Below, in pieces: positions 4,541 through 37,282 of a stretch of 37,640 nucleotides of DNA (positions within the stretch are counted from its first letter, which is position 1; every line of letters begins with the position of its first letter). Origin of the DNA: a virus; the UHGV virus genome UHGV-1707198. One strand, 5' to 3'. A model generated the notes under the pieces. It saw only the letters and a list, made by a program, of their open reading frames with translations. It was not told the origin of the DNA and made no database searches. The position numbers were made by a program, and so were the translations under genes.

Positions 4541-7500
4541 ATGGAACAGTTCAAGAAGAAAAAATTACCGCTTCTTATTGCCGGTGCTGGTGGCAAGAAA
4601 AGTAAAAGCTCCAGCCGTACCCCGGTTGAAGCTGATGATACTGTCAATTCTCGTGCTATGGCAGCCATCCTCGACCTTCTTGGCGAGGGGGTTATCGGTG
4701 GCCTGGTAAATGGCGCAAAGTCGATCTTCATCGACGATTTACCGATCTTGAATGAAGATGGCTCTTCCAACTTCAGCGGTATTACATGGGATTTTCGTGA
4801 CGGCTCACAAGATCAGACGCCAATGGCTGGTTTTGATTTTGTCGAAACGCCTAAGTCCGTAAATATTCAGCTTAAAAAAACACACGACGTTACGGTTTCA
4901 ATCGATAACGATGAAGCTGATCGCGTTCGTGTCATCATGAAATTCCCCTCTTTACGTAGCGTTGATAAAAGCTCTGGCGATACAAATGGCACTACGGTGA
5001 AGTACAAATTCCAGATCGCCAACGCAGACGCAACATTTTCTGATGTAGTGGCAGAAGGTGAGAAAAGCGTTGATATCACGCTAACGGCAAAGAAAACCGG
5101 CGTGTATTACCGTAGCTATGAGCTGAAACTGCCTAAGCCTGGTCGTGCATACAAGGTTAGGGTGATTCGTCTTACAGATGATAATAGTAGCCAGTACCTC
5201 TACAACGACACATGGGTTGATTCCATCGGTGAGATTGTCGACACGCCAATGAACTACCCTAACTCTGCTCTTGTTGGCTTGAAGGTCAATTCAGAGCAGT
5301 TTGGTAGCACAATGCCTTCCCGTTCGTATTTGGTGCGCGGTATCAAAATCCGAGTACCGTCAAACTACAACGAATACACCAATACTTATGTCGGCGTATG
5401 GGACGGTACTTTTAAGCTGTTGTCTTCTTCAAACCCTGCGTGGATTCTCTACGATTTGCTTACCAATACTCGGTATGGTCTTGGGCAATTTGTGTCGGAA
5501 TCCATGATTGACCTCGGCCAGCTCTACCAGATTGGTCGATATTGTGACGAAGAGGTCGATGATGGCTTTGGGGGTAAAGAGAAACGCTTTGCAATCAATA
5601 CGCAGATCACCAGTCGACAAGACGCATACCGATTAATTCAGGATATTGCCGGTGCATTCCGCGGCATGGTGTTTTGGGCTGGTGGCATGGTTAACATCAT
5701 GCAGGATAGCCCATCAGATCCGGTAATGATGTTTACCAACTCCAACGTCAAAGATGGACTGTTTACCTATAAAGGTTCTGCGCGTAAAGATCGCCCATCC
5801 GTTGCGCTCGTAACCTACAACAACAAGGAGGACGGTTATAAGCAAAACATCGAGTACGTTGAAGATCAGGACGCAATGCGCCGTTATGGTGAGCGTAAAA
5901 CAGAAGTCGTAGCATTTGGATGTACAAGCCGAGGCCAGGCTCACCGAGTTGGTTTGTGGCTTTTGTATACCGCCAGAATGGAGTCGGATGTAATTACATT
6001 TACTGCCGGCTTAGACGCCTCATTTCTGATGCCCGGTGAAACCGTTCTGATTCAGAACAAATATCGTGCAGGTAAACGTAACTCCGGTCGAATTGTGGAG
6101 TTTACCAAAAACAGCATCACTCTCGATGCGCCTGTGTCGTTAGCTAAAAGCGGCAGCTTTATTCGGATATTGAATCAGGAAGGCAAAATCGTTGAACGCG
6201 ATGTTCTTGAAACTGGCGAAAACATAACAAAGGTTACGTTTTCAAAAGCCCTGTCGTCAGCGGAAACGCCTGTTTTGAACGGTGTCTGGACAATTACAGA
6301 ACCAGATCTCGAACCTATGCGCGTTCGCATCGTTAACATCGCGCAGGGGGAAACGCCGGGTAGCTTTGACATCACCGCTGTTGAGAACAATCCGTCTAAA
6401 TATGAGGCAATCGACAATGGTGCAACGCTGATCCCGCAGAATACGACGGTATTGGACCCAACTTACTCCAAGCCATCTAATCTGCAAATCACTGAAGGGA
6501 CTTATCTCTCAAGCCCGGGCAACCTGTCAGTAAAACTGACTGCAACATGGGAAGGAAAATCTCCAGAGTATTGGATCAGTTGGCGACGTTCTGATGAAAA
6601 CAATGTATCGAACTGGCAATCGGCGCGTGTAACCGAAGAGCAATACGAAATCGTTAATGTCGCGGAGAATGGACGCTACGACTTCCAACTGTATGCGGTT
6701 TCATTCAACGGTAAAAAAACAGAGATTATCAGTACCGTTTATCAGGTGTTGGGCACAATGACACCGCCGGATGCCCCAACGTCATTAACGGCCGTTGGAG
6801 ACTATCGTAATGTGATACTGAATTGGGTTAATCCAGATTCGGTAGACCTTGATCACATTAATGTTTACGCATCCCAGACCAACAATCTGGATACGGCGAA
6901 ACTGATCGCAGAGTCTGCAAGCACCACCTTTACACATGCTGGTCTTGGGGATAGCGAAACGTGGTATTACTGGGTTCGAGCATCGAACAAGCGAGGTATG
7001 TTAAGCCCTCCGAACTCAAACTTGGGTACAGAGGCGACAACTCGCGATGTACTGTCGTTCCTGGCTGGCAAAATTACATCTTCCGAGCTTGGTCAGGCTC
7101 TGCTTGAGGACATCAACAGCAAAGCCTCTCAAGAAGCAGTTGACGAGTTAAATGAGCATATCAACCAGAGCGTCGAATCTTTGGAGGGGTCGGTAAACGA
7201 CGTTAAGGAAGATATAGCTGAATTAGATAAGCAGTTCAGCGATAACCTCGCGGGTTTTGAAATAAAATTCAACGAGCGTAGCGATGCTTTGGAGAACGCA
7301 CAAACCGAGCTTAAAGGTGAGGTTTCGGCAACGATCGACAAGGTCAATGAAGCGTTTGAAAAAATTGATGCTACTGATGCTGCAATTGTTGAAATCGAAA
7401 ACACCGTATCTGAACACGATAAAGCTCTCGCTAATACAGTCGAGGCAATAAAGGCTGCAAGAGATGAAGCGGCGGCTCTTATTGCTAAGGAAAGCGAGGC

Positions 7501-14889: not shown

Positions 14890-15225
14890 ATGGAGGAAAA
14901 TATGTCGAACGAGATGGCGGGCGTTACAACAGAGCAAGTTGAGCGTATTGCCGCGATCGTTGCTCGGGAGGTTGTTGGTAAATTAGGTAAAGAGCTACGT
15001 GAAGAAATTGGCCAAGAGGTCAATGATCAGCTGAAAACCTACTTTGGTGATATGACCCCGGCGCAACATAGTATTCAACACTCCAATCTGGACAAACTCC
15101 TTAACCGGTTAGATTCCATCTCCAGTGGGTTCTTTGGCGGCATTGTTTCTAAAATAACGTCGTTCATTATTACTGCACTGCTTTTGGGGTTAGCCGCGTA
15201 TGGCGTAAAAAATGGACTGCAATAA
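14890..15225 (+). CDS. putative holin-like membrane protein (single C-terminal transmembrane helix)
   Basis: 111 aa with a C-terminal hydrophobic helix (ITSFIITALLLGLAAYGV); called holin only by position directly upstream of the putative endolysin and spanins. Topology is atypical for a holin. Confidence 0.3.
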   Translation: MEENMSNEMAGVTTEQVERIAAIVAREVVGKLGKELREEIGQEVNDQLKTYFGDMTPAQHSIQHSNLDKLLNRLDSISSGFFGGIVSKITSFIITALLLGLAAYGVKNGLQ

Positions 15226-15238
15226 CAGGAGATCAAGG

Positions 15239-15931
15239 ATGAAGACTCCGAGAGGCATTCGTAATAATAACCCCGGTAATCTTGATAAAGGATCACCGTG
15301 GCAAGGTCTGGTTGCGAATCCAGACGAACCGCGCTTTTGCACGTTTAAAGACCCTGTTTGGGGGATTCGTGCGCTGGCGGTGACTCTAATTACCTACCAC
15401 GACAAACGTCGCGCAAAAGACGGCTCAAGTATCGATACCATTCGTGAAGTTATTGAACGTTGGGCACCGCCGAATGAAAACAACACTGACGCCTACATTA
15501 ATGAGGTGTCTAAAGCCGTTGGTGTAACCGCAGACATGATCATCGATCTGCATGATTACGACATCCTTCGACCTTTGGTTGAGGCAATCATTCGCCATGA
15601 GAATGGGCGAGGTCCGCTAAAAACGCTGAACACCTGGTATGCGGCAGAAGTTATTGAGGAAGGTCTGCGTCGAGCTGGCGTCGTTAAGCCGGTGAAAACC
15701 GTGAAGGCTGTTCCTGTAACTAAAGAAACCGCAGGCGCAACTGTTACAGCAGGTATTGGTCTGGCACAGCTGGCCGATGTTATGCCACAGGTTTCCGCTG
15801 CTATGGATAAAGCACAAGGTCATATCTCTAGCGGGGATACAGTACGCATCATCTTCGGTATTGCCACTATTGTTGTGGCAGGATTCATTGCCTGGTCGCA
15901 GGTAAGAAAACACCAGAAAGGGATGGTCTAA
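15239..15931 (+). CDS. putative endolysin / cell-wall hydrolase with C-terminal membrane anchor
   Basis: AGGAG ribosome-binding site before the ATG at 15239. Sits between the holin-like gene and the spanins. GIRNNNPGN motif near the N-terminus, which I associate with a phage cell-wall hydrolase family but cannot verify here; C-terminal hydrophobic helix IIFGIATIVVAGFIAW. Confidence 0.4.
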   Translation: MKTPRGIRNNNPGNLDKGSPWQGLVANPDEPRFCTFKDPVWGIRALAVTLITYHDKRRAKDGSSIDTIREVIERWAPPNENNTDAYINEVSKAVGVTADMIIDLHDYDILRPLVEAIIRHENGRGPLKTLNTWYAAEVIEEGLRRAGVVKPVKTVKAVPVTKETAGATVTAGIGLAQLADVMPQVSAAMDKAQGHISSGDTVRIIFGIATIVVAGFIAWSQVRKHQKGMV

Positions 15932-15932
15932 T

Positions 15933-16184
15933 ATGCTAGGCAGCCTGATGACAAAGCTAAAAGTTGCTTTGATTACGCTGGCTGCCGTTCTTTTCGTTCT
16001 GGTCGGCGCTTACACGATGGGCGGGAATGCGGCGCGACGAGCAATGGAAGAGAAGGCAAAACAGGAAGACAGAAAACGACTTCAAAGCACAGTGGATGTC
16101 AAAAATGAAACGGTTAATGAAGTGCGACAAAAAGATGCCTCTGGTGTTCATCGCGAGCTGTTTGATAAATGGGTGCGTGATTAA
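15933..16184 (+). CDS. putative i-spanin (Rz-like)
   Basis: 83 aa; N-terminal transmembrane helix then a charged helical region; starts 1 nt after the endolysin stop. Confidence 0.5.
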   Translation: MLGSLMTKLKVALITLAAVLFVLVGAYTMGGNAARRAMEEKAKQEDRKRLQSTVDVKNETVNEVRQKDASGVHRELFDKWVRD

Positions 16185-25355: not shown

Positions 25356-25587
25356 GTTTTTTTTCTGTTGATATAGGATGAACAGTTTAGACGCGGCAAG
25401 CGTCAAGTGTGCGAAAAAGGGTACTTAAATTTAGTTAATATGTCAGCTTTGTTGATTTAGTTTATGGTCGGTAAAGTTACTGGGAAACTAATAACCATAA
25501 GAAATAGTACGCCATTTAATTATTGTGGCACTGCTCGTGTTTTGATTAACTAATACCTGCGATAAATATAAATAAAGGGAAGCCAAC

Positions 25588-26001
25588 ATGAGCAAAAATA
25601 AGCTGATTTTAACAGGAGCTTTATTGTCTTTGTTTGCTTTAGTGGGGTGTAAGCCTACAGACGAGAAGGCTATTGCTCTGGGCCAACAAGCAATTGCGGA
25701 TGATATGAAAGATCCCACGTCGGTGATGTTTAGGAAAGATAAGTTTGTCAGGACTGATCATGACGATGGGAGTGTGACAGGCTTTGTGTGCGGAGAATTG
25801 AACGCCAAAAATGGCTTTGGTGCATACGTGGGCTATCACTCATATGTTGTTGAACTCGAAATGAAGCCAAAGGGCATGTTTTCGAAAGGGGTGGTATACA
25901 AAATCCTATCGAAGTCGTTGGCACCTAATGATCCTCATGACTTACAGCGTTATAAGCAGGTCTACAGAAAGATGTGCAACAGCGAGGCTGTAGCTCATTA
26001 A
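25588..26001 (+). CDS. lipoprotein
   Basis: 137 aa; signal peptide with lipobox LVGC; AAAGGGA ribosome-binding site. Confidence 0.5.
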   Translation: MSKNKLILTGALLSLFALVGCKPTDEKAIALGQQAIADDMKDPTSVMFRKDKFVRTDHDDGSVTGFVCGELNAKNGFGAYVGYHSYVVELEMKPKGMFSKGVVYKILSKSLAPNDPHDLQRYKQVYRKMCNSEAVAH

Positions 26002-26008
26002 TGGTGAA

Positions 26009-26040
26009 TGCCGGGCAGACTATAAGCCCGGCATCTTCGT
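26009..26040 (+). terminator. rho-independent terminator
   Basis: TGCCGGGC-agactataa-GCCCGGCA followed by TCTTCGT. Confidence 0.45.
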
Positions 26041-26064
26041 ATAGGGAACTATTGCGCCTAAAAT

Positions 26065-26085
26065 GATAAGTAGATACATACTTAG
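26065..26085 (+). promoter_or_regulatory. recurrent motif, copy upstream of gene 26127
   Basis: GATAAGTA-gataca-TACTTAG. Confidence 0.45.
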
Positions 26086-26126
26086 TTTTTTGTAAGAATA
26101 CTTTCATCTGTTAGCTAGGAGTTGGT

Positions 26127-26903
26127 ATGAAAGACGAAATTCAGAAATTGGCCTGTGACATCATTGATAAAACAGGTTTAGAAATCAGCGAGGGCAGTCG
26201 ACTAGACATCATTGGAAAGGCCGTCAATACAGCAATGAATCATATCGCTGCTCGTATGGACGAGATCCCGCTACCAGGGTTGCCTTATCTGAAAGTTGAG
26301 TTACACGTATGGGGCGAACCTTCTTGTGCACGGCGTTCTGCATTAGTTGTTTTTATTAGCAAAGAAAACCCGCTCAGTCTTAAAGTGCAGGTTGGAGCAT
26401 GGCTTGATGGCAGAGTGATCTACACAAATACCGTTTTTTGTCTTTCAAACGACGAAACTATTGAAGCGGCCATTCAAGAAGCAGTTCTAGCAATGCGCAG
26501 CAGCGGTTTGATGAAGAATAACTACGAAGAGTACTTGCGTTCGATAAGTGGTGAAAAGACATTATCTCTGAAAGCAGATTTCGTTACCCCGAAAAATCTG
26601 TTGGAAGTTTTGATTAATAAAGGGGCTAATAGTGCCGTAAATGTAATCAGAGAGAGTGAATACGCGTCTCTTTGGGATATGTGCAAAAGCCAGTTGGATC
26701 TTGTGCATATCGTTGTTGATGCGGGGAAGGCTTGTGATGGCGTAATGGCGGAATTTGCTGGGAAGATGGTCAGGATTGCTAACGAATTACCGATGATTAA
26801 GCAAGAGGCTAAATCATACGCCACCAATCATGTCACAGAGCTTCTTGCCCCTTATCGCTTAGAAAGCGATCAGCGCAAGATGATTAGCTGGGGAAGTTGG
26901 TAA
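26127..26903 (+). CDS. hypothetical protein
   Basis: 258-aa ORF with AGGAG ribosome-binding site; no motif recognised. Confidence 0.45.
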   Translation: MKDEIQKLACDIIDKTGLEISEGSRLDIIGKAVNTAMNHIAARMDEIPLPGLPYLKVELHVWGEPSCARRSALVVFISKENPLSLKVQVGAWLDGRVIYTNTVFCLSNDETIEAAIQEAVLAMRSSGLMKNNYEEYLRSISGEKTLSLKADFVTPKNLLEVLINKGANSAVNVIRESEYASLWDMCKSQLDLVHIVVDAGKACDGVMAEFAGKMVRIANELPMIKQEAKSYATNHVTELLAPYRLESDQRKMISWGSW

Positions 26904-26934
26904 GCTCTCTGTGTGTCGTTTTTTACGCAAGTAA

Positions 26935-26949
26935 TGATAGGTAAGCACA
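26935..26949 (+). promoter_or_regulatory. recurrent motif, copy upstream of gene 26971
   Basis: TGATAGGTAAGCACA. Confidence 0.4.
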
Positions 26950-26970
26950 AGATTATTTCTGGCGGTAATT

Positions 26971-27441
26971 GTGAAAGCTGATTTGTCAAAAATCCCTTCT
27001 ATTTCAGGAAATAACAGTTATTCACTTCGTTGTGAGGAAGTAAAGATAAACGGTGAGTCGGCATATTGCAGCTATTCCGTTTGCCAGCACACCATTCTTG
27101 CCTTCAAAGAAAACCGTCTTCCTCGAACTTCTTTCCAGTCGTGCGCAACCGCTATTAAAGCAGGCAAATGCAAGGCGTTAAAAATGATGGTTGAAGAGAT
27201 TCGTAAAGGAGAATCTCTGTATTTTGAAGATATGACCGCACTCATTAAGGAGGTTGAAGAACGGAATAAACAAGCCAGAACTATAAAACGAAAACGTGAC
27301 GGTGTAACGATTAATAGCATGGTTAAGAAGAGCGCCACATCACAAACAGCGATCACTGACGTGTATGCGGCGTTGCTTGAAGAAACAACAAAAGAAACAC
27401 ATGAGCAAATCGATCAACATATGGAGGCAAAACAACAATGA
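26971..27441 (+). CDS. hypothetical Cys-containing protein
   Basis: 156 aa, GTG start; several Cys in the N-terminal 75 residues (C-x12-C-x4-C ... C-x7-C); stop overlaps the ligase start. Confidence 0.4.
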   Translation: MKADLSKIPSISGNNSYSLRCEEVKINGESAYCSYSVCQHTILAFKENRLPRTSFQSCATAIKAGKCKALKMMVEEIRKGESLYFEDMTALIKEVEERNKQARTIKRKRDGVTINSMVKKSATSQTAITDVYAALLEETTKETHEQIDQHMEAKQQ

Positions 27442-28760
27442 AAAAGTTGATCGCACTTAAGCATAAGCTGGACGAAATGAAAGCTATGGGAACCAATGCA
27501 AAAAAAGAGGCATTGGCCAACATGGATGACTTTGAACAAAGCATGGTTTCATTGATGCTCAACCCTTTCATCCGTTTTGGGGTAAAGAAATACAAAGTGG
27601 CAGAGCCGCTTAGTGAGTCCGTCCCAAGTGACGAAAAAGCCATTGATATACTGAATAAGCTGGCCTCTCGCGAGCTAACGGGGAACGCAGCAATAGCAGC
27701 TGTTGAGTCTATCGTGGCGTCAATGTGCGCCGATGGGCAGGACGTGTTCCGTCGTTTCCTCTTAAAAGACCCGAAAGCAGGTGTTGGGATTAGCCTATGC
27801 AACAAGGTTTTTGAAAATCCCATTCCGAAATTCGAGGTGCAGCTGGCGTCACCGTATAAAGAAAAAGGCGACAAATACCCCTTCAAGCCAAATCCTAAAG
27901 CAAAATGGCCGATGATTGGCAGTCTTAAGCTCGATGGTTTGCGAGTAATTTGCGAGGTTATTGTTGACGAGGAAGAGGTTAACTTCCTTTCTCGTACTGG
28001 TAATCCAATCACGTCTCTCGATCACCTAAAGCCAGCAATGCTCGAATTAGGCAAACTTTCAGGCCACAAACACATCTTCTTCGATGGTGAAGGAACAGCC
28101 GGTTCATTTAACCAGTCCGTATCTGCATTGCGCAAAAAGAACGTGCAGGCAATTGGCGCTATTTATCATGTTTTCGACTTCTTCCTACCGGAATGGCGGG
28201 CACAGGCTAAATCCAAAGAGTATGCAAAGACAGGTATGAAGCTGAAAGAGCGCCTGGCTATGCTGGTGGCGTTGTTTAAAAACGATCGCAGTGAAGGCTA
28301 CGCACAAGACATTCACCTGCATCCGTTCTATATCATCCATAGCCACGAAGATTTCATCGAACGCTTCATGAAACGCCTGGACGATAACGAAGAAGGGGAG
28401 ATGGGCAAAAATCCGAACTCTGTTTACGAGTTTAAACGTACCCGCAGCTGGTGGAAGTTAAAAGACGAAGATTCAGAAGATGGTGAAATTATCGACTTTG
28501 AGCCGGGCGACCCGGACTCTGGTTTTGCCAACACGCTTGGAAAAATTGTTATTCGCCTTGAAAACGGTGTGATTGTTCGTGCGAGCGGCATTAAGCATAA
28601 ATATCTGGACGAGATCTGGAACAACAAAGAGAAGTACCGTGGTCGTATTGTCGAGGTTCATTGTCACGAGAAAACGCCGGATGGCAGCTTACGCCACCCA
28701 CGACTGAAATGGCCGCGTTGCTTACGCGATACAGAAGATCGAATCGGAGATAAAGAATGA
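27438..28760 (+). CDS. ATP-dependent DNA ligase
   Basis: 440 aa; KLDGLR matches nucleotidyltransferase motif I (KxDG); FFDGEGTAG and the C-terminal EVHCHEKTPDGSLRHPRLKW region are consistent with motifs III and VI. Confidence 0.65.
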   Translation: MKKLIALKHKLDEMKAMGTNAKKEALANMDDFEQSMVSLMLNPFIRFGVKKYKVAEPLSESVPSDEKAIDILNKLASRELTGNAAIAAVESIVASMCADGQDVFRRFLLKDPKAGVGISLCNKVFENPIPKFEVQLASPYKEKGDKYPFKPNPKAKWPMIGSLKLDGLRVICEVIVDEEEVNFLSRTGNPITSLDHLKPAMLELGKLSGHKHIFFDGEGTAGSFNQSVSALRKKNVQAIGAIYHVFDFFLPEWRAQAKSKEYAKTGMKLKERLAMLVALFKNDRSEGYAQDIHLHPFYIIHSHEDFIERFMKRLDDNEEGEMGKNPNSVYEFKRTRSWWKLKDEDSEDGEIIDFEPGDPDSGFANTLGKIVIRLENGVIVRASGIKHKYLDEIWNNKEKYRGRIVEVHCHEKTPDGSLRHPRLKWPRCLRDTEDRIGDKE

Positions 28761-28936
28761 TGCTCGGCTGGATGATTGCATTTTTAGCAGTTGGTTTTTT
28801 CATCGGTATTGTGGTGATGTCCAGTTGCATTAATGACTACATTAAAAACGGTGTTATAGAAAGACGAGGTCGCATTTATCGCATTGTAGAAATAACCAAC
28901 ACCGTGAAGGAGATTAAGGATGATCGTATTAAGTAA
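28757..28936 (+). CDS. small membrane protein (59 aa, below the ORF-track cutoff)
   Basis: Found by manual translation: MMLGWMIAFLAVGFFIGIVVMSSCINDYIKNGVIERRGRIYRIVEITNTVKEIKDDRIK. ATG overlaps the ligase stop; one predicted transmembrane helix. Confidence 0.35.
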   Translation: MMLGWMIAFLAVGFFIGIVVMSSCINDYIKNGVIERRGRIYRIVEITNTVKEIKDDRIK

Positions 28937-29135
28937 ACGGGAGAAGGAAACGCTTCATGAAATCAGTAAGTGGCCGGAGTTCCCTGAGTACTGGAAGCCT
29001 AAAACGCGAGCTAAGTTAGAGCGGTTAGGGTTGGTTGCAAACGTTTCTGAAACGAAGTGTTCGGCCAACTACCAGTTAACTGATAAAGGGAAAGTATTGC
29101 TACAGCAATTAGTAGAATCAGGAGTGTTAAAATGA
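28920..29135 (+). CDS. hypothetical protein
   Basis: 71-aa soluble ORF with AAGGAG ribosome-binding site; translationally coupled to its neighbours. Confidence 0.35.
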   Translation: MIVLSKREKETLHEISKWPEFPEYWKPKTRAKLERLGLVANVSETKCSANYQLTDKGKVLLQQLVESGVLK

Positions 29136-29285
29136 TTCCATACATCTCATTAGCTTTTATGGGTGGCTTCCTAATCGGCTTCGGCATCTGTCGTGATTTA
29201 ATTAAGCAGGAACTTAAAACCAAAACACTGTGCATCGGAAAGCGTGTGTATCGGGTAGTTCATGAAACAAAGGTTAGAAAATGAG
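29133..29285 (+). CDS. small membrane protein (50 aa), paralogue of 28757..28936
   Basis: Manual translation MIPYISLAFMGGFLIGFGICRDLIKQELKTKTLCIGKRVYRVVHETKVRK; shares the hydrophobic helix and the R-x-Y-R-[IV]-V-x-E-T motif with the 59-aa ORF. Confidence 0.35.
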
Positions 29286-29571
29286 CAATTTAACTTCTTG
29301 GGACTGGTGGTTGGCCACCTATTTCTTAGCGGCCGGAGTCGCATTCGCCTTTTACGTAGGTCAGTTAGTCGTAAAACTGTTGCTGATTAAATTTGCTAGT
29401 CATAAACGTATCGATGATGGTCTGTGGCGTCTTGGCACCCTGGTGGAAACTCGCTACGGGCAACTTAAGGAGAACGAAACCATTACTATCCAGGCGAAAC
29501 GATTCACTGCCACCATCACAAGAACACCTAGTCGTAGAGTGGCCTTGATCAAAAAAGTCACAACCGAATAA
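29281..29571 (+). CDS. small membrane protein
   Basis: 96 aa; ATG overlaps the upstream stop (ATGA); N-terminal transmembrane helix WWLATYFLAAGVAFAFYVG. Confidence 0.4.
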   Translation: MSNLTSWDWWLATYFLAAGVAFAFYVGQLVVKLLLIKFASHKRIDDGLWRLGTLVETRYGQLKENETITIQAKRFTATITRTPSRRVALIKKVTTE

Positions 29572-29580
29572 AAATACAAT

Positions 29581-29602
29581 GATAAGTATTTACTTACTTA
29601 TC
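29581..29602 (+). promoter_or_regulatory. recurrent motif, dyad copy at the head of the non-coding leader before the tRNAs
   Basis: GATAAGTA-tttact-TACTTATC; the 8-bp arms are exact reverse complements. Confidence 0.5.
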
Positions 29603-30349
29603 TTTTGTGTATAAGATGACTTTGTTTTCGTTGAGACGCGACTGTTTGAACTTAAATACAAGTGCAAACGAAGAAGTCTATCTGGCAGTAGCCTAATAAG
29701 CCAAACACCAGCGAGGTCAGTTTCCAGCCTCGTTACCGAAATGGGACACACTGAGCGAGTGTGATTGCAGAACGCAGGAGGGAACATGAATGTTCCCTCC
29801 GATGAAGTAACAGAATGGGCGGTTGGTATATTTTCAACTCCATATGACTCCCGGATTCTTAGCCACTGACCGCCCATCCTGTTACGTCATTTTGTTCAAT
29901 TATGTCGTTTATACTGGGTTAAAAAGCGGCGACGTAGCCCGGCTGGTATGGTTAGCCAGCACACAACGTTGAGGCCATTACATTTTTATCAATTCTAAGG
30001 TTCTATTCACAGAGATACCGGCGAGCGTTGATATGTAACATGTTGGGCAAACATTCAATCGGAGTAGTGGCCTCAACGTTGTGAAGACGGGATTGTTGTG
30101 TAGGTTTAACCACTGTTGCCATTGGTGCCTGTTTTCACAACAAATGATTCCATACATCACATTGTATAAATTACAAAGTAGGTGCTGTCCTCAGAAACAT
30201 CATCTACTTAAAGATTTTGCCTTCTACTATTGAGCGAAGTCGAAAGCGTCTGGCACTAACGAAAAGTGCAAGTAGCGGTGCGTTTCCTGGCAGAAACTAA
30301 ACCGTCGCGATTGGCACTGTTGAGTAATAAATACTGGCAGTGCTGAATT

Positions 30350-30424
30350 GATGGTGTAGCTCAGCGGTAGAGCAGTTGGCTGTTAACCAACTGGTCGGTG
30401 GTTCGAATCCACCCACCATCGCCA
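30350..30424 (+). tRNA. tRNA-Asn (anticodon GTT)
   Basis: Cloverleaf folded by hand: acceptor GATGGTG/CACCATC, D-arm GCTC/GAGC, anticodon stem GTTGG/CCAAC with loop CTGTTAA, T-arm GGTGG-TTCGAAT-CCACC, encoded CCA. Confidence 0.85.
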
Positions 30425-30429
30425 ATTTA

Positions 30430-30516
30430 GGGGAGTTAGTCCGTAGAGGTAGCGGTGTAGACTGTAAATCTACTGTCATGGCGACTCGGGTGGTTCGACT
30501 CCATCACTCCCCACCA
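30430..30516 (+). tRNA. tRNA-Tyr (anticodon GTA), long variable arm
   Basis: Acceptor GGGGAGT/ACTCCCC, anticodon stem GTAGA/TCTAC with loop CTGTAAA, long variable arm, encoded CCA. Confidence 0.8.
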
Positions 30517-30520
30517 AATT

Positions 30521-30596
30521 GCCGGTTTAGCTCAGTTGGTAGAGCAGTCGTTTTGTAAGCGAATGGCCAGCGGTTCAAGTCCGTTAACCGGCACCA
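30521..30596 (+). tRNA. tRNA-Thr (anticodon TGT), probable
   Basis: Acceptor GCCGGTT/AACCGGC, D-arm GCTC/GAGC, T-arm AGCGG-TTCAAGT-CCGTT, anticodon loop TTTGTAA; the anticodon stem has one G-A mismatch and one G-U pair, so identity is less certain. Confidence 0.65.
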
Positions 30597-30604
30597 ACAC
30601 AACA

Positions 30605-30680
30605 GGTAAGAGCATTGGGCGAATCGGCGATACTGACCCACAAGGCCGTAAATCGATAGAGTCAGACCAGTGCTCTTACC
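30605..30680 (+). ncRNA. 76-nt hairpin element in the tRNA spacer (not a canonical tRNA)
   Basis: 10-bp terminal stem GGTAAGAGCA/TGCTCTTACC enclosing 56 nt; a hand-fold as a tRNA fails (no D-arm or T-arm pairing). Related stems occur at 30681..30739 and 30811..30912. Confidence 0.3.
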
Positions 30681-30916
30681 GTTGTGAGGAAGTGCAGCTC
30701 TTTGAAGCAACCAGAAGATAAGCATCTGGCTTCACAACACAACGATAATATCATTACGGTTAATCGTCGTTCATGTGCACAATGACTGGTCGAAAGGTAG
30801 TGATCTTACCATTGTGATGAATGCACAGGCTGATGTGCCGCAACTACAGTAGTGCGCGCTTTGCGGGGCTTGCTACAACCCTGTGTCGGAGTTCAGCACC
30901 GACCATCACAATAGCT

Positions 30917-31003
30917 GGAGAGTAGGGAGCATGGTGCTCAAGCGGTCTTGAAAACCGTCCCATTGTGCAAACGATGATGGTTCGATTCCATTACTCTCCG
31001 CCA
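30917..31003 (+). tRNA. tRNA-Ser (anticodon TGA), long variable arm
   Basis: Acceptor GGAGAGT/ACTCTCC, anticodon stem-loop GCGGT-CTTGAAA-ACCGT closely resembling E. coli tRNA-Ser(UGA) as recalled, T-loop TTCGATT, encoded CCA. Confidence 0.75.
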
Positions 31004-31157
31004 GACACAGCGTTGAGCGGTTTGGCCTTTTAATCAACTCGATTAAGACTCCGCTAACATAAACCAGACCGCTCAACGCTGTGATAGATAATTACGGCAG
31101 ACGTTCTTAACCATAGCTTGCTAACATCCTAGCAACACTTTTTTCAGCGCAAAATTC

Positions 31158-31180
31158 AAAGGGGCTTCGGCCCCTTTTTT
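31158..31180. terminator. bidirectional rho-independent terminator
   Basis: AAAGGGGC-ttcg-GCCCCTTTTTT, with A-run and T-run on either side; sits between the tRNA cluster and the convergent minus-strand gene. Confidence 0.55.
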
Positions 31181-31195
31181 GTTGAACAGTGCAAT

Positions 31196-32458
31196 TTACT
31201 TTACATAGTCGCCCAGTTTTAATATTTCGCGCTTATATTCTTTAACCATGCTACTGGATTCAGTATAAATTCGATTTAAAAGATTATCGCTATCTTTATT
31301 CTCATTTATCTTAATGAGTGATAATTTAAATTCATAGTCATCAAATGCCACAATCAAATGGTGGCCTGGGATTATATCTTCGTCACTCTTGAAGTATATA
31401 TCTTCAAGTATGTAATCTAGTTGATTAGATTTTCTTTTCTCGATGTAATCTTCAGCCATAGCTATTACATCATTCCTGTCATTTAACCTGTTTTTTTCGG
31501 AAGGCACATCTTCGTAATGTTGCACGATTGAACAACCAATAAGGCGTGGGATGTAAACGTCAAAATGAGTAACTCTATCATTCGCGGTTTTAAGTAGTTC
31601 CTCAAAGTAGTTTCTTACATGTAAAGGCAACTTCTCAAAGTAATCATTAATTATAGGAGAACAAGGAGTTTTATAATTCATAAGAACCGACGGTACGAGC
31701 TTTGGGTCTCGAAACATCCAGTCCCTTTTAACGTCCGATGGAACATAATAACTTTTAATGATATTATCAAAATAATTTATCATTCGAGATTTGAATATTT
31801 TGTTGAATCTAAGGTTTATGAATGCATCCAGATAAGGCATATCTGAATAAGCATCATCAAAAAATATTTCATCATTGAAAAAATCATATTTATTTAATAA
31901 ACAACACAGTTTTCCCGAATTAATATGTTCACAATAATCGATCTTTAATCCAAAGATAGCAATGATCAACTTCATCTGAGGTGGGATTTTGAAAATTAAT
32001 TGTGACACATACGCTCTTTTTTCCTTTAGACATTCCCCATCAATATAAAATGAACTATCCACATACTCAAAAATATTAATAATATGCTTCACATACTGTA
32101 TTACCTCATGCTGTTTTACCAATGGGTAATATAGTCTATGTAACTCATCGCTGTTTAAATTAATTTTGCGTTTATCGATAATTTGTTTTGCAAGAAGACA
32201 TAGCTCATCATGTTGATTTAATAAGGAATCAAACCATTGTTTAAATGCACTCTTTCGCATTTCGAACAATGATTCTGTTGTTAATTGAAGGGCTGAAAAA
32301 GCTGCTTTTGCACTTTTTCTCGCTTCGTAGGCATTCCATGCTGTTGCTATAAAAGCAAATGCTGTAGCCAATGTTCCAACAATTTGACCATTTAAAACAA
32401 CCCAATCCCAAAAAATCACGGTGAGCAGTAGTATAATAATGAAAATTAAAAAAGGCAT
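31196..32458 (-). CDS. AT-rich membrane-anchored protein of unknown function
   Basis: 420 aa; N-terminal two hydrophobic helices (FLIFIIILLLTVIFWDWVV and VGTLATAFAFIATAW), then a large Asn/Lys/Tyr/Phe-rich domain. Opposite strand to nearly everything else; very low GC. Confidence 0.5.
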   Translation of the reverse strand: MPFLIFIIILLLTVIFWDWVVLNGQIVGTLATAFAFIATAWNAYEARKSAKAAFSALQLTTESLFEMRKSAFKQWFDSLLNQHDELCLLAKQIIDKRKINLNSDELHRLYYPLVKQHEVIQYVKHIINIFEYVDSSFYIDGECLKEKRAYVSQLIFKIPPQMKLIIAIFGLKIDYCEHINSGKLCCLLNKYDFFNDEIFFDDAYSDMPYLDAFINLRFNKIFKSRMINYFDNIIKSYYVPSDVKRDWMFRDPKLVPSVLMNYKTPCSPIINDYFEKLPLHVRNYFEELLKTANDRVTHFDVYIPRLIGCSIVQHYEDVPSEKNRLNDRNDVIAMAEDYIEKRKSNQLDYILEDIYFKSDEDIIPGHHLIVAFDDYEFKLSLIKINENKDSDNLLNRIYTESSSMVKEYKREILKLGDYVK

Positions 32459-37260: not shown

Positions 37261-37282
37261 GATAAGTAACCACTTACGATAG
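37261..37282 (+). promoter_or_regulatory. recurrent motif, copy upstream of gene 37340
   Basis: GATAAGTAACCACTTACGATAG. Confidence 0.4.

Follow-up and report, generated by a model that had tools for sequence, protein, structure and literature searches.

Small predicted inner-membrane proteins encoded behind the DNA ligase gene of SSU5-like phage-plasmids

Four small genes behind the ligase gene

We analysed a cluster of four small genes, here called orfA, orfB, orfC, and orfD (products A to D), that directly follows the gene for an ATP-dependent DNA ligase in the virus genome UHGV-1707198; the whole stretch of 37,640 nucleotides is referred to as the window. Over positions 27400-30000, the window shows 99% identity to Escherichia phage Cyrano (phage-plasmid pLF82) and 79% identity to Salmonella phage SSU5 and, judged by its sequence, it is an SSU5-like phage-plasmid. 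The 951 bases that span the cluster have matches in 759 PLSDB plasmids, whose hosts are Klebsiella, Escherichia, Enterobacter, Salmonella, Yersinia pestis (pMT), Citrobacter, and Cronobacter. According to the Cyrano annotation, the gene order in the window runs from tail genes through a lysis cassette, toxin-antitoxin and partition genes, a helicase, and a primase to two unknown genes, the ligase, the small genes, tRNAs, an integrase, and a repressor. SSU5-like phage-plasmids are common in clinical Enterobacterales, and their lytic programme is almost uncharted. With a conserved set of co-translated mini membrane proteins, the end of the replication operon offers a tractable entry into it, as the genes are small and natural deletion variants exist; without a phenotype, the cluster is one among many orphan phage gene clusters.

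The ligase gene (27438..28760, plus strand) matches Pfam DNA_ligase_A_M (E 6.6e-13) and is annotated as DNA ligase in both Cyrano and SSU5. Its stop codon, TGA at 28758-28760, overlaps the start of orfA, and four overlapping open reading frames (ORFs) follow on the plus strand, exactly where the first-pass annotation had placed them: orfA at 28757..28936 with 59 amino acids (aa), orfB at 28920..29135 with 71 aa, orfC at 29132..29284 with 50 aa, and orfD at 29281..29571 with 96 aa. The overlap is 4 nucleotides (nt; ATGA) between ligase and orfA, orfB and orfC, and orfC and orfD, and 17 nt between orfA and orfB, while a Shine-Dalgarno-like purine run lies 7-11 nt 5' of every start. The proposal that the genes are translationally coupled stands. 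The first ATG of orfA is replaced by CTG in SSU5, Yersinia pestis pMT, and Enterobacter, so the true start is probably the second ATG (28760), which would give a product of 58 aa.

All four ORFs are open in relatives at 59-80% protein identity (84-95% for the ligase in the same relatives). Substitutions are skewed to third codon positions, and the ratio of nonsynonymous to synonymous substitution rates (dN/dS) ranges from 0.08 to 0.43 across the four genes, with 0.10-0.19 for orfA, 0.14-0.43 for orfC, and 0.08-0.12 for orfD where dS is unsaturated. These results indicate that all four are real protein-coding genes under purifying selection. Each protein matches one PHROGs family end to end (E 1e-37 to 1e-59), and the four families are thus already catalogued: phrog_4381 is the orfA family, phrog_4054 that of orfB, and phrog_6302 that of orfC, and PHROG 4507 completes the set. 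All of them are labelled “unknown function”, and neither Pfam nor NCBIfam nor PADLOC gave an above-threshold match for A to D. In plasmid records, at least one of the small genes often goes without annotation, and orfA has none in the Cyrano record.

In GenBank and RefSeq, the homologues of orfD (e.g., 4861-5166 in locus L002) widely go by the name “C-type natriuretic protein”. No family search (Pfam, PHROGs, and others) backs this name, which looks like a propagated mis-annotation. A literature search found no mention of the four genes, and queries with this product name and with pHCM2 plus ligase gave nothing. What is new here is the paralogy of A and C, the core of one peptide plus D, the predicted topology, the arguments that weigh against a toxin-antitoxin or holin role, and corrections to two annotations.

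The 59-aa and 50-aa products, A and C, had been described as paralogues in the first-pass annotation, and several comparisons agree with this. BLASTP aligned A with C at E 6e-5, with 31% identity over 45 aa, and the two family profiles aligned in hhalign without a gap over positions 1-46 (79% probability, E 1.6e-5). In the shuffle tests, helix and tail were permuted separately and their compositions kept apart, so that hydrophobic composition cannot produce the signal; the observed score was reached by 4 of 100,000 full-length shuffles and by 17 of 100,000 shuffles of the tail only, and the family-level z was 5.4. Across both families, M1, G12, R38, Y40, R41, and T46 are invariant, and G16 and K29 are nearly so. 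The shared hydrophobic helix and the basic tail stood as described, but the tail motif had to be changed: it had been given with an x-E-T ending, while A has RIYRIVEIT and C has RVYRVVHET at this place, i.e., R-x-Y-R-[IV]-V-x-x-T.

For homologues of A and C, an exhaustive HMMER scan of 1.84 billion representatives returned 26 clusters, and a word-indexed search of 5.8 billion proteins returned 148 proteins. Sequences intermediate between the two families are found among the 26 clusters, for example, MMIPYI...RRRVYRVVEIT (P0195) and ...KTGVVAIGRRVYRVVHST (P0191), and in a distant relative (L019) the two peptide copies match each other at E 4e-7. The inspected contigs with A/C homologues are all SSU5-like and about 100-112 kb long, except for one 669-bp metagenome fragment (L022); homologues of B and D are equally restricted to the SSU5-like lineage. 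With a gapless alignment, significant shuffle tests, and intermediates, A and C are true paralogues, and PHROGs 4381 and 6302, which are unlinked in PHROGs, are now joined as paralogous families. D was also considered as a third paralogue, which is unproven: BLASTP gave no alignment, and the hhalign probability was 0.3-7.5%. It is by eye only that the D hairpin K-R-F-T-A-T-I-T-R-T resembles G-K-R-V-Y-R-V-V-H-E-T.

We checked 16 members of the A, C, and D families, and all of them carry one strongly hydrophobic segment at the extreme N-terminus. Virtually no lysine or arginine precedes this segment, acidic residues are present there in D, and the C-terminal part has a net charge of +1 to +7. 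Under the positive-inside rule, the scarcity of positive charge before the segment and the basic tail behind it predict for A, C, and D a single pass through the inner membrane, with the N-terminus on the outside and the C-terminus in the cytoplasm. About 1-8 residues are predicted to lie outside the membrane, or up to 17 in some D proteins. The basic tail of A contains ...RRGRIYRIVEIT..., and that of C, with a net charge of +7, ends in ...IGKRVYRVVHETKVRK; the residues R38, Y40, R41, and T46, common to both paralogues, form a predicted cytoplasmic motif. Within the membrane segment, A and C share a GxxxG motif (G12 invariant, G16 nearly so), and the D helix has the motif G19xxxA23xxxG27, of which G19, A23, and G27 are invariant among close D relatives. 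Such small-xxx-small motifs, of the GxxxG type, are classical helix-packing motifs. A low-confidence model of D (pLDDT 62) places a helix at residues 6-59 and a beta-hairpin at strands 67-71 and 76-80; behind the membrane helix, D is predicted to have a cytoplasmic helix and this hairpin. We rejected A as a lipoprotein or secreted peptide with the motif V-M-S-S-C, as Klebsiella oxytoca, Cronobacter, and P0097 have S or R in place of the cysteine, which is thus not conserved, and there is no basic n-region.

The 71-aa product B has no hydrophobic segment and is soluble, as had been stated before. Its AlphaFold2 model (pLDDT 79.8) has the order helix-helix-strand-strand-helix, with helices at 6-17 and 27-35, a strand pair at 39-41/51-53, and a C-terminal helix at 55-67, and B models as a minimal winged-helix protein. 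Compared with the PDB by Foldseek, the best matches are the winged-helix domains of MarR, SlyA, CouR, and PadR (TM 0.70-0.75; probability about 1.0 for MarR, SlyA, and CouR). The predicted fold of B thus lies on the DNA-binding domains of MarR/PadR/HxlR regulators, and the wing motif Y-x-L-T-x-K-G is common to both; unlike these regulators, however, B has just 71 aa, is without their dimerisation helices, and has sequence matches to them only below threshold. It fails the curated family cut-offs, with 13.7 bits versus 25.5 for HTH_45 and 13.7 versus 22 for EarA. Apart from HTH_45/EarA, the sub-threshold sequence matches were to Csa3 and the HxlR-type PA1607, and the PADLOC scan gave only weak Csa3/CARF winged-helix matches, all to B. 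The fold also superposes on many small phage winged helices, which are mostly uncharacterised; some of them bind host proteins, not DNA.

Variation among relatives and expression in the lysogen

The order ligase-A-B-C-D was found in 80 of 104 related loci, including a lineage in which A is only 39% identical to that of the window. The first-pass annotation had proposed conservation of the cluster in related genomes as a check, and with this order and intact frames in the relatives the cluster is indeed conserved. In every relative examined with an intact ligase gene and first peptide gene, distant ones included, the peptide start overlaps the ligase stop, and orfD always comes after the last peptide gene.

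The remaining arrangements show which genes can be lost. One locus has ligase-A-C-D and no B (L025), two have the ligase, a single peptide, and then D, again with no B (L017 and L024), and one from E. coli has ligase-B-C-D and no A (L004). Two loci from Klebsiella pneumoniae plasmids (L006 and L015) have lost most of the ligase together with A and B and have kept C and D. Because L017 and L024 keep a single peptide before D and the Klebsiella deletions keep C and D, the conserved core of the cluster is one peptide followed by D, and B and the second peptide are optional. Among PLSDB plasmids, at a coverage of at least 80%, A was found in 478, B in 636, C in 670, and D in 641 records, which makes orfC the most widely kept of the four genes. 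In Escherichia, A has 139 and B has 220 of these records, and from these counts, as opposed to a per-record tally, A appears to be missing in about 80 Escherichia elements.

The loss of A in L004 can be traced to a short repeat. A direct repeat on the plus strand has its first copy, GGAGATAAAGAATGAT, at 28746..28761, comprising the Shine-Dalgarno and start context of orfA, and its second copy, GGAGATTAAGGATGAT, at 28909..28924, comprising that of orfB, and a deletion between the two copies excises orfA exactly. In the E. coli locus L004, the sole locus examined for this, A was lost between the 16-nt direct repeats GGAGAT[A/T]AAG[A/G]ATGAT, and the junction lies inside the repeat.

A different rearrangement is present in Yersinia pestis pMT (L005, NZ_CP045159, 1-2386), where IS100 (istB) lies directly upstream of a leftover of the ligase that comprises only residues 93-440 and is unannotated as a gene; beside this truncated ligase, the four small genes have all stayed intact. 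The Klebsiella type of deletion, of ligase, A, and B, is also present in p2 of strain Kp1604 (OK644452 / NZ_OK644452, H70), for which membrane vesicles and no phage particles were reported after mitomycin C (PMC8969562). Such an outcome would fit a role of the deleted block in lytic growth and proves nothing on these genes. A few kb downstream of the cluster, distant relatives carry counter-defence and accessory genes (L017 7962-8636, L019 9594-10381, and L023/L024 9168-10144), i.e., Tad2-like, Acb2/Tad1 hairpin, Lar restriction alleviation, NinH, and Phage_gp49_66.

For expression, we used normalised RNA-seq counts of Cyrano in strain LF82 grown in LB culture (supplementary S1 table of PMC9928086). 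In the lysogen, the counts are 5.9 for the ligase, 6.4 for B, 5.0 for C, and 7.6 for D, with a count floor of 5, which is also the level of the terminase and capsid genes (PMC9928086). On the same element, KacT reaches 344 and its antitoxin 592, HicA 294, HicB 141, RelE 89, and the repressor 96; in four other sample types, B to D climb somewhat more than the ligase and are still low (PMC9928086). The near-floor counts mean that the cluster is silent in lysogeny and is part of the repressed lytic programme. It is worth mentioning that the “moron” CYRAN_40, a minus-strand ORF at 30504-30725 of the window reported as highly expressed in lysogeny, overlaps the genes for tRNA-Thr and tRNA-Ser, and its read count may merely reflect tRNA transcripts.

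Possible functions of the membrane proteins

The function that we favour, as a tentative choice among several, is that of a lytic-phase platform in the inner membrane, in which the peptide or peptides and D would form a hetero-oligomer that holds a cytoplasmic partner, most likely replicating DNA or its enzymes. The four genes make up the 3' end of the ligase operon and belong to the lytic-cycle programme. One or two peptides and D would pack through their small-xxx-small helix motifs, and the basic cytoplasmic hairpins ([KR]-R-[VI]-Y-R-[VI]-V-x-x-T) would tether the partner at the membrane. The likeliest partner would be phage DNA in replication or recombination, or the enzymes acting on it, as with p1 and p16.7 of phage phi29, while B would serve as an optional accessory that binds DNA or protein. 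Both complex formation and replication anchoring are what we infer here. With its place in the helicase-primase-ligase module and its coupling to the ligase, the cluster has a position that suggests early-gene status. Replicating DNA or its enzymes would be the most economical partner because the position behind the ligase is invariant and a winged-helix protein is present.

In phi29, the early small membrane proteins p1 and p16.7 organise replication at the membrane (PMC4974454). They share with A, C, and D a small size, a location among replication genes, and a membrane anchor joined to a cytoplasmic part, which in A, C, and D is predicted, and the role proposed for them is to bring replicating DNA, or the proteins that replicate it, to the membrane (PMC4974454). 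However, we found no sequence or fold similarity between them and A to D, and the analogy is functional only. Replication in phi29 is protein-primed and takes place in a Gram-positive host, and where p16.7 has a defined dimeric domain for DNA binding, A and C have only a basic tail of about 30 residues.

Several observations weigh against a replication platform. Any link to the ligase or DNA is not obligatory, because C and D are kept where the ligase is deleted and several lineages do without B. The small genes evolve faster than the ligase (59-80% versus 84-95% identity) and are patchily present, a pattern that is equally or more typical of host-interaction or exclusion genes. The synteny with the ligase may be just vertical inheritance in one lineage. 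All four families are orphan PHROGs confined to this phage lineage. Searches of Pfam, PHROGs, PADLOC, and NCBIfam gave no homology of A to D to any characterised protein, and the model of D is a low-confidence one. Because of the ligase-free C and D, the dispensable B, the fast evolution, and the patchiness, host takeover and lytic exclusion remain close rivals.

Under host takeover, the peptides and D would dock through packing of their helices onto a host inner-membrane protein, such as a component of the divisome, a transporter, or an FtsH-like protease, and inhibit or redirect it in the lytic phase. Proteins of this kind are known: SP01 gp56 acts on cell division, and AcrZ, MgtS, and SgrT are small bacterial regulators. 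Fast evolution and variable presence are typical of accessory host-interaction genes, the small-xxx-small helix motifs are present, the genes are in the lytic programme, and relatives have counter-defence and accessory genes downstream (Tad2-like, Acb2/Tad1, Lar, and NinH). The fold of B is also like that of H-NS binders of the T7 gp5.5 type (TM 0.65-0.69). On the other hand, there is no homology to known effectors and no nameable target, the best-conserved residues are in the cytoplasmic tail and not just in the helix, and the constant position behind the ligase is left unexplained. We consider host takeover a possible but somewhat doubtful explanation.

Exclusion appears to be the role most often documented for small phage inner-membrane proteins, and superinfection exclusion had also been suggested by the first-pass annotation. 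The silence of the genes in the lysogen speaks against the form expressed from the prophage, as for HK97 gp15 or P22 SieA. What stays is a lytic form, which we regard as rather unlikely, in which early inner-membrane proteins would block DNA entry by further phages, in a cell that is bound for lysis anyway, in the manner of T4 Imm and Sp; these are small inner-membrane phage proteins made early in lytic growth, non-essential, and variable. The genes of the cluster likewise encode small, predicted inner-membrane proteins that would be made with early or middle genes, and duplicated, diverging copies with lineage-specific losses fit an arms race. However, known exclusion proteins mostly work on the periplasmic side, whereas by prediction A, C, and D expose few residues beyond the membrane and carry their conserved motif in the cytoplasm. 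Sp is periplasmic and Imm has two helices, while A, C, and D have nearly nothing outside, and no homology to these or other known proteins was found.

A more specific proposal allows for one of two functions: A, C, and D would be an undescribed hetero-oligomeric inner-membrane platform of duplicated mini-proteins, specific to the large SSU5/pMT1/pHCM2 phage-plasmids, that in the lytic cycle either tethers the replication and recombination machinery, with B as DNA adaptor, or excludes phages from the cytoplasmic face. In this specific form, we think it unlikely.

The holin/antiholin role proposed from the sequence is unlikely, as a canonical putative holin-endolysin-Rz cassette lies elsewhere in the window, at 14890-16184 (endolysin phrog_873, Rz phrog_1026 (Rz/Rz1), and the holin per the Cyrano annotation). 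That A, C, and D are a holin/antiholin- or pinholin-like set that tunes membrane permeabilisation and lysis timing is therefore quite improbable. A single-pass topology with charged C-termini, which is not holin-specific, would suit such a set, and so would the glycine-zipper-like motifs. The sole holin match, that of the D helix to a PHROGs holin family, is weak (E 0.019) and spans just 27 hydrophobic residues. The complete lysis cassette is 12.5 kb upstream, and what the cluster is coupled to is an enzyme of replication and not late genes.

Least probable is a toxin-antitoxin or plasmid-addiction module, with the membrane peptides as toxins and either B or an antisense RNA to neutralise them: although the element is a plasmid with several such systems, and the peptides, with their length of about 50 aa and their helix at the N-terminus, look superficially like type I toxins, addiction modules need expression in the lysogen, where B to D and the ligase have counts of 5-8 versus about 90-600 for KacT, HicAB, and RelE, and no pair is obligate, because B is absent in L025, L017, and L024 with peptides present and A is absent in L004 with B present. 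The peptides have no match to Hok/Gef or another toxin family in Pfam, NCBIfam, or PADLOC. They share with the Hok/Gef type I toxins a length of about 50 aa, an N-terminal transmembrane helix, and a plasmid location, but A and C have no Pfam Hok_Gef match, are silent in the plasmid state, are translationally coupled to an enzyme gene, unlike the antisense-RNA-controlled Hok/Gef toxins, and have the opposite predicted topology, with a cytoplasmic tail. A crude consensus promoter scan of both strands found no promoter-like site within the cluster; over 25400-31200, its single match was at 27308-27280 on the minus strand, given as inside the ligase gene.

The conserved region downstream of the cluster

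The stretch just 3' of orfD is better conserved than the four genes themselves. Directly after the orfD stop, at 29582-29597, lies a conserved palindrome, ATAAGTATTTACTTAC, whose core TAAGTRTTTACTTA is present in 87 of the 104 loci. Variants of it are also found at 2383-2398 and 37262-37277, intergenic and just after stop codons, and these three matches compare with 0.15 expected. The palindrome overlaps the -35 region of a promoter-like TATAAG at 29610-29615, which was seen by eye and is uncalled by the promoter scan. It is a candidate operator, to which B or another regulator might bind; the locus L025 carries the palindrome yet has no B.

At about 29618-29895 on the plus strand, a structured RNA of about 280 nt is predicted, with a fold that is far better than that of shuffles (z -4.87) and 17 predicted pairs with compensatory changes; a long hairpin, with a run of Ts behind it, forms its end. 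Within it, at 29664-29693 on the plus strand, with stops at 29694-29699, is a start-less frame (GCA AAC GAA GAA GTC TAT CTG GCA GTA GCC TAA TAA) that encodes ANEEVYLAVA and closely resembles the SsrA tag ANDENYALAA. The frame is found in 91 of the 104 loci in eight variants, all of which keep AN...L[AM][AV]A. In SSU5, as read from the alignment, there is an in-frame stop six codons upstream of the tag frame and no intervening start codon.

Rfam gave just sub-threshold tmRNA matches, which lie over the tag, and no tRNA-like domain was found by ARAGORN at relaxed thresholds or by a T-loop motif search. In 236 RefSeq E. coli genomes, where it is almost always plasmid-borne, the region carries no annotation, and a literature search on this RNA found nothing. 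The RNA may be a tmRNA-like RNA of phage-plasmids or a mimic of the mRNA-like domain of tmRNA, and we judge it, with its SsrA-like frame, more striking than the four-gene cluster. A 95-aa minus-strand ORF opposite this RNA (29590-29877) is very likely spurious. The remaining stretch before tRNA-Asn, 29896-30349, also folds much better than shuffles (z -5.07) and contains a perfect 16-nt long-range inverted repeat, in which 29962-29977 pairs with 30068-30083.

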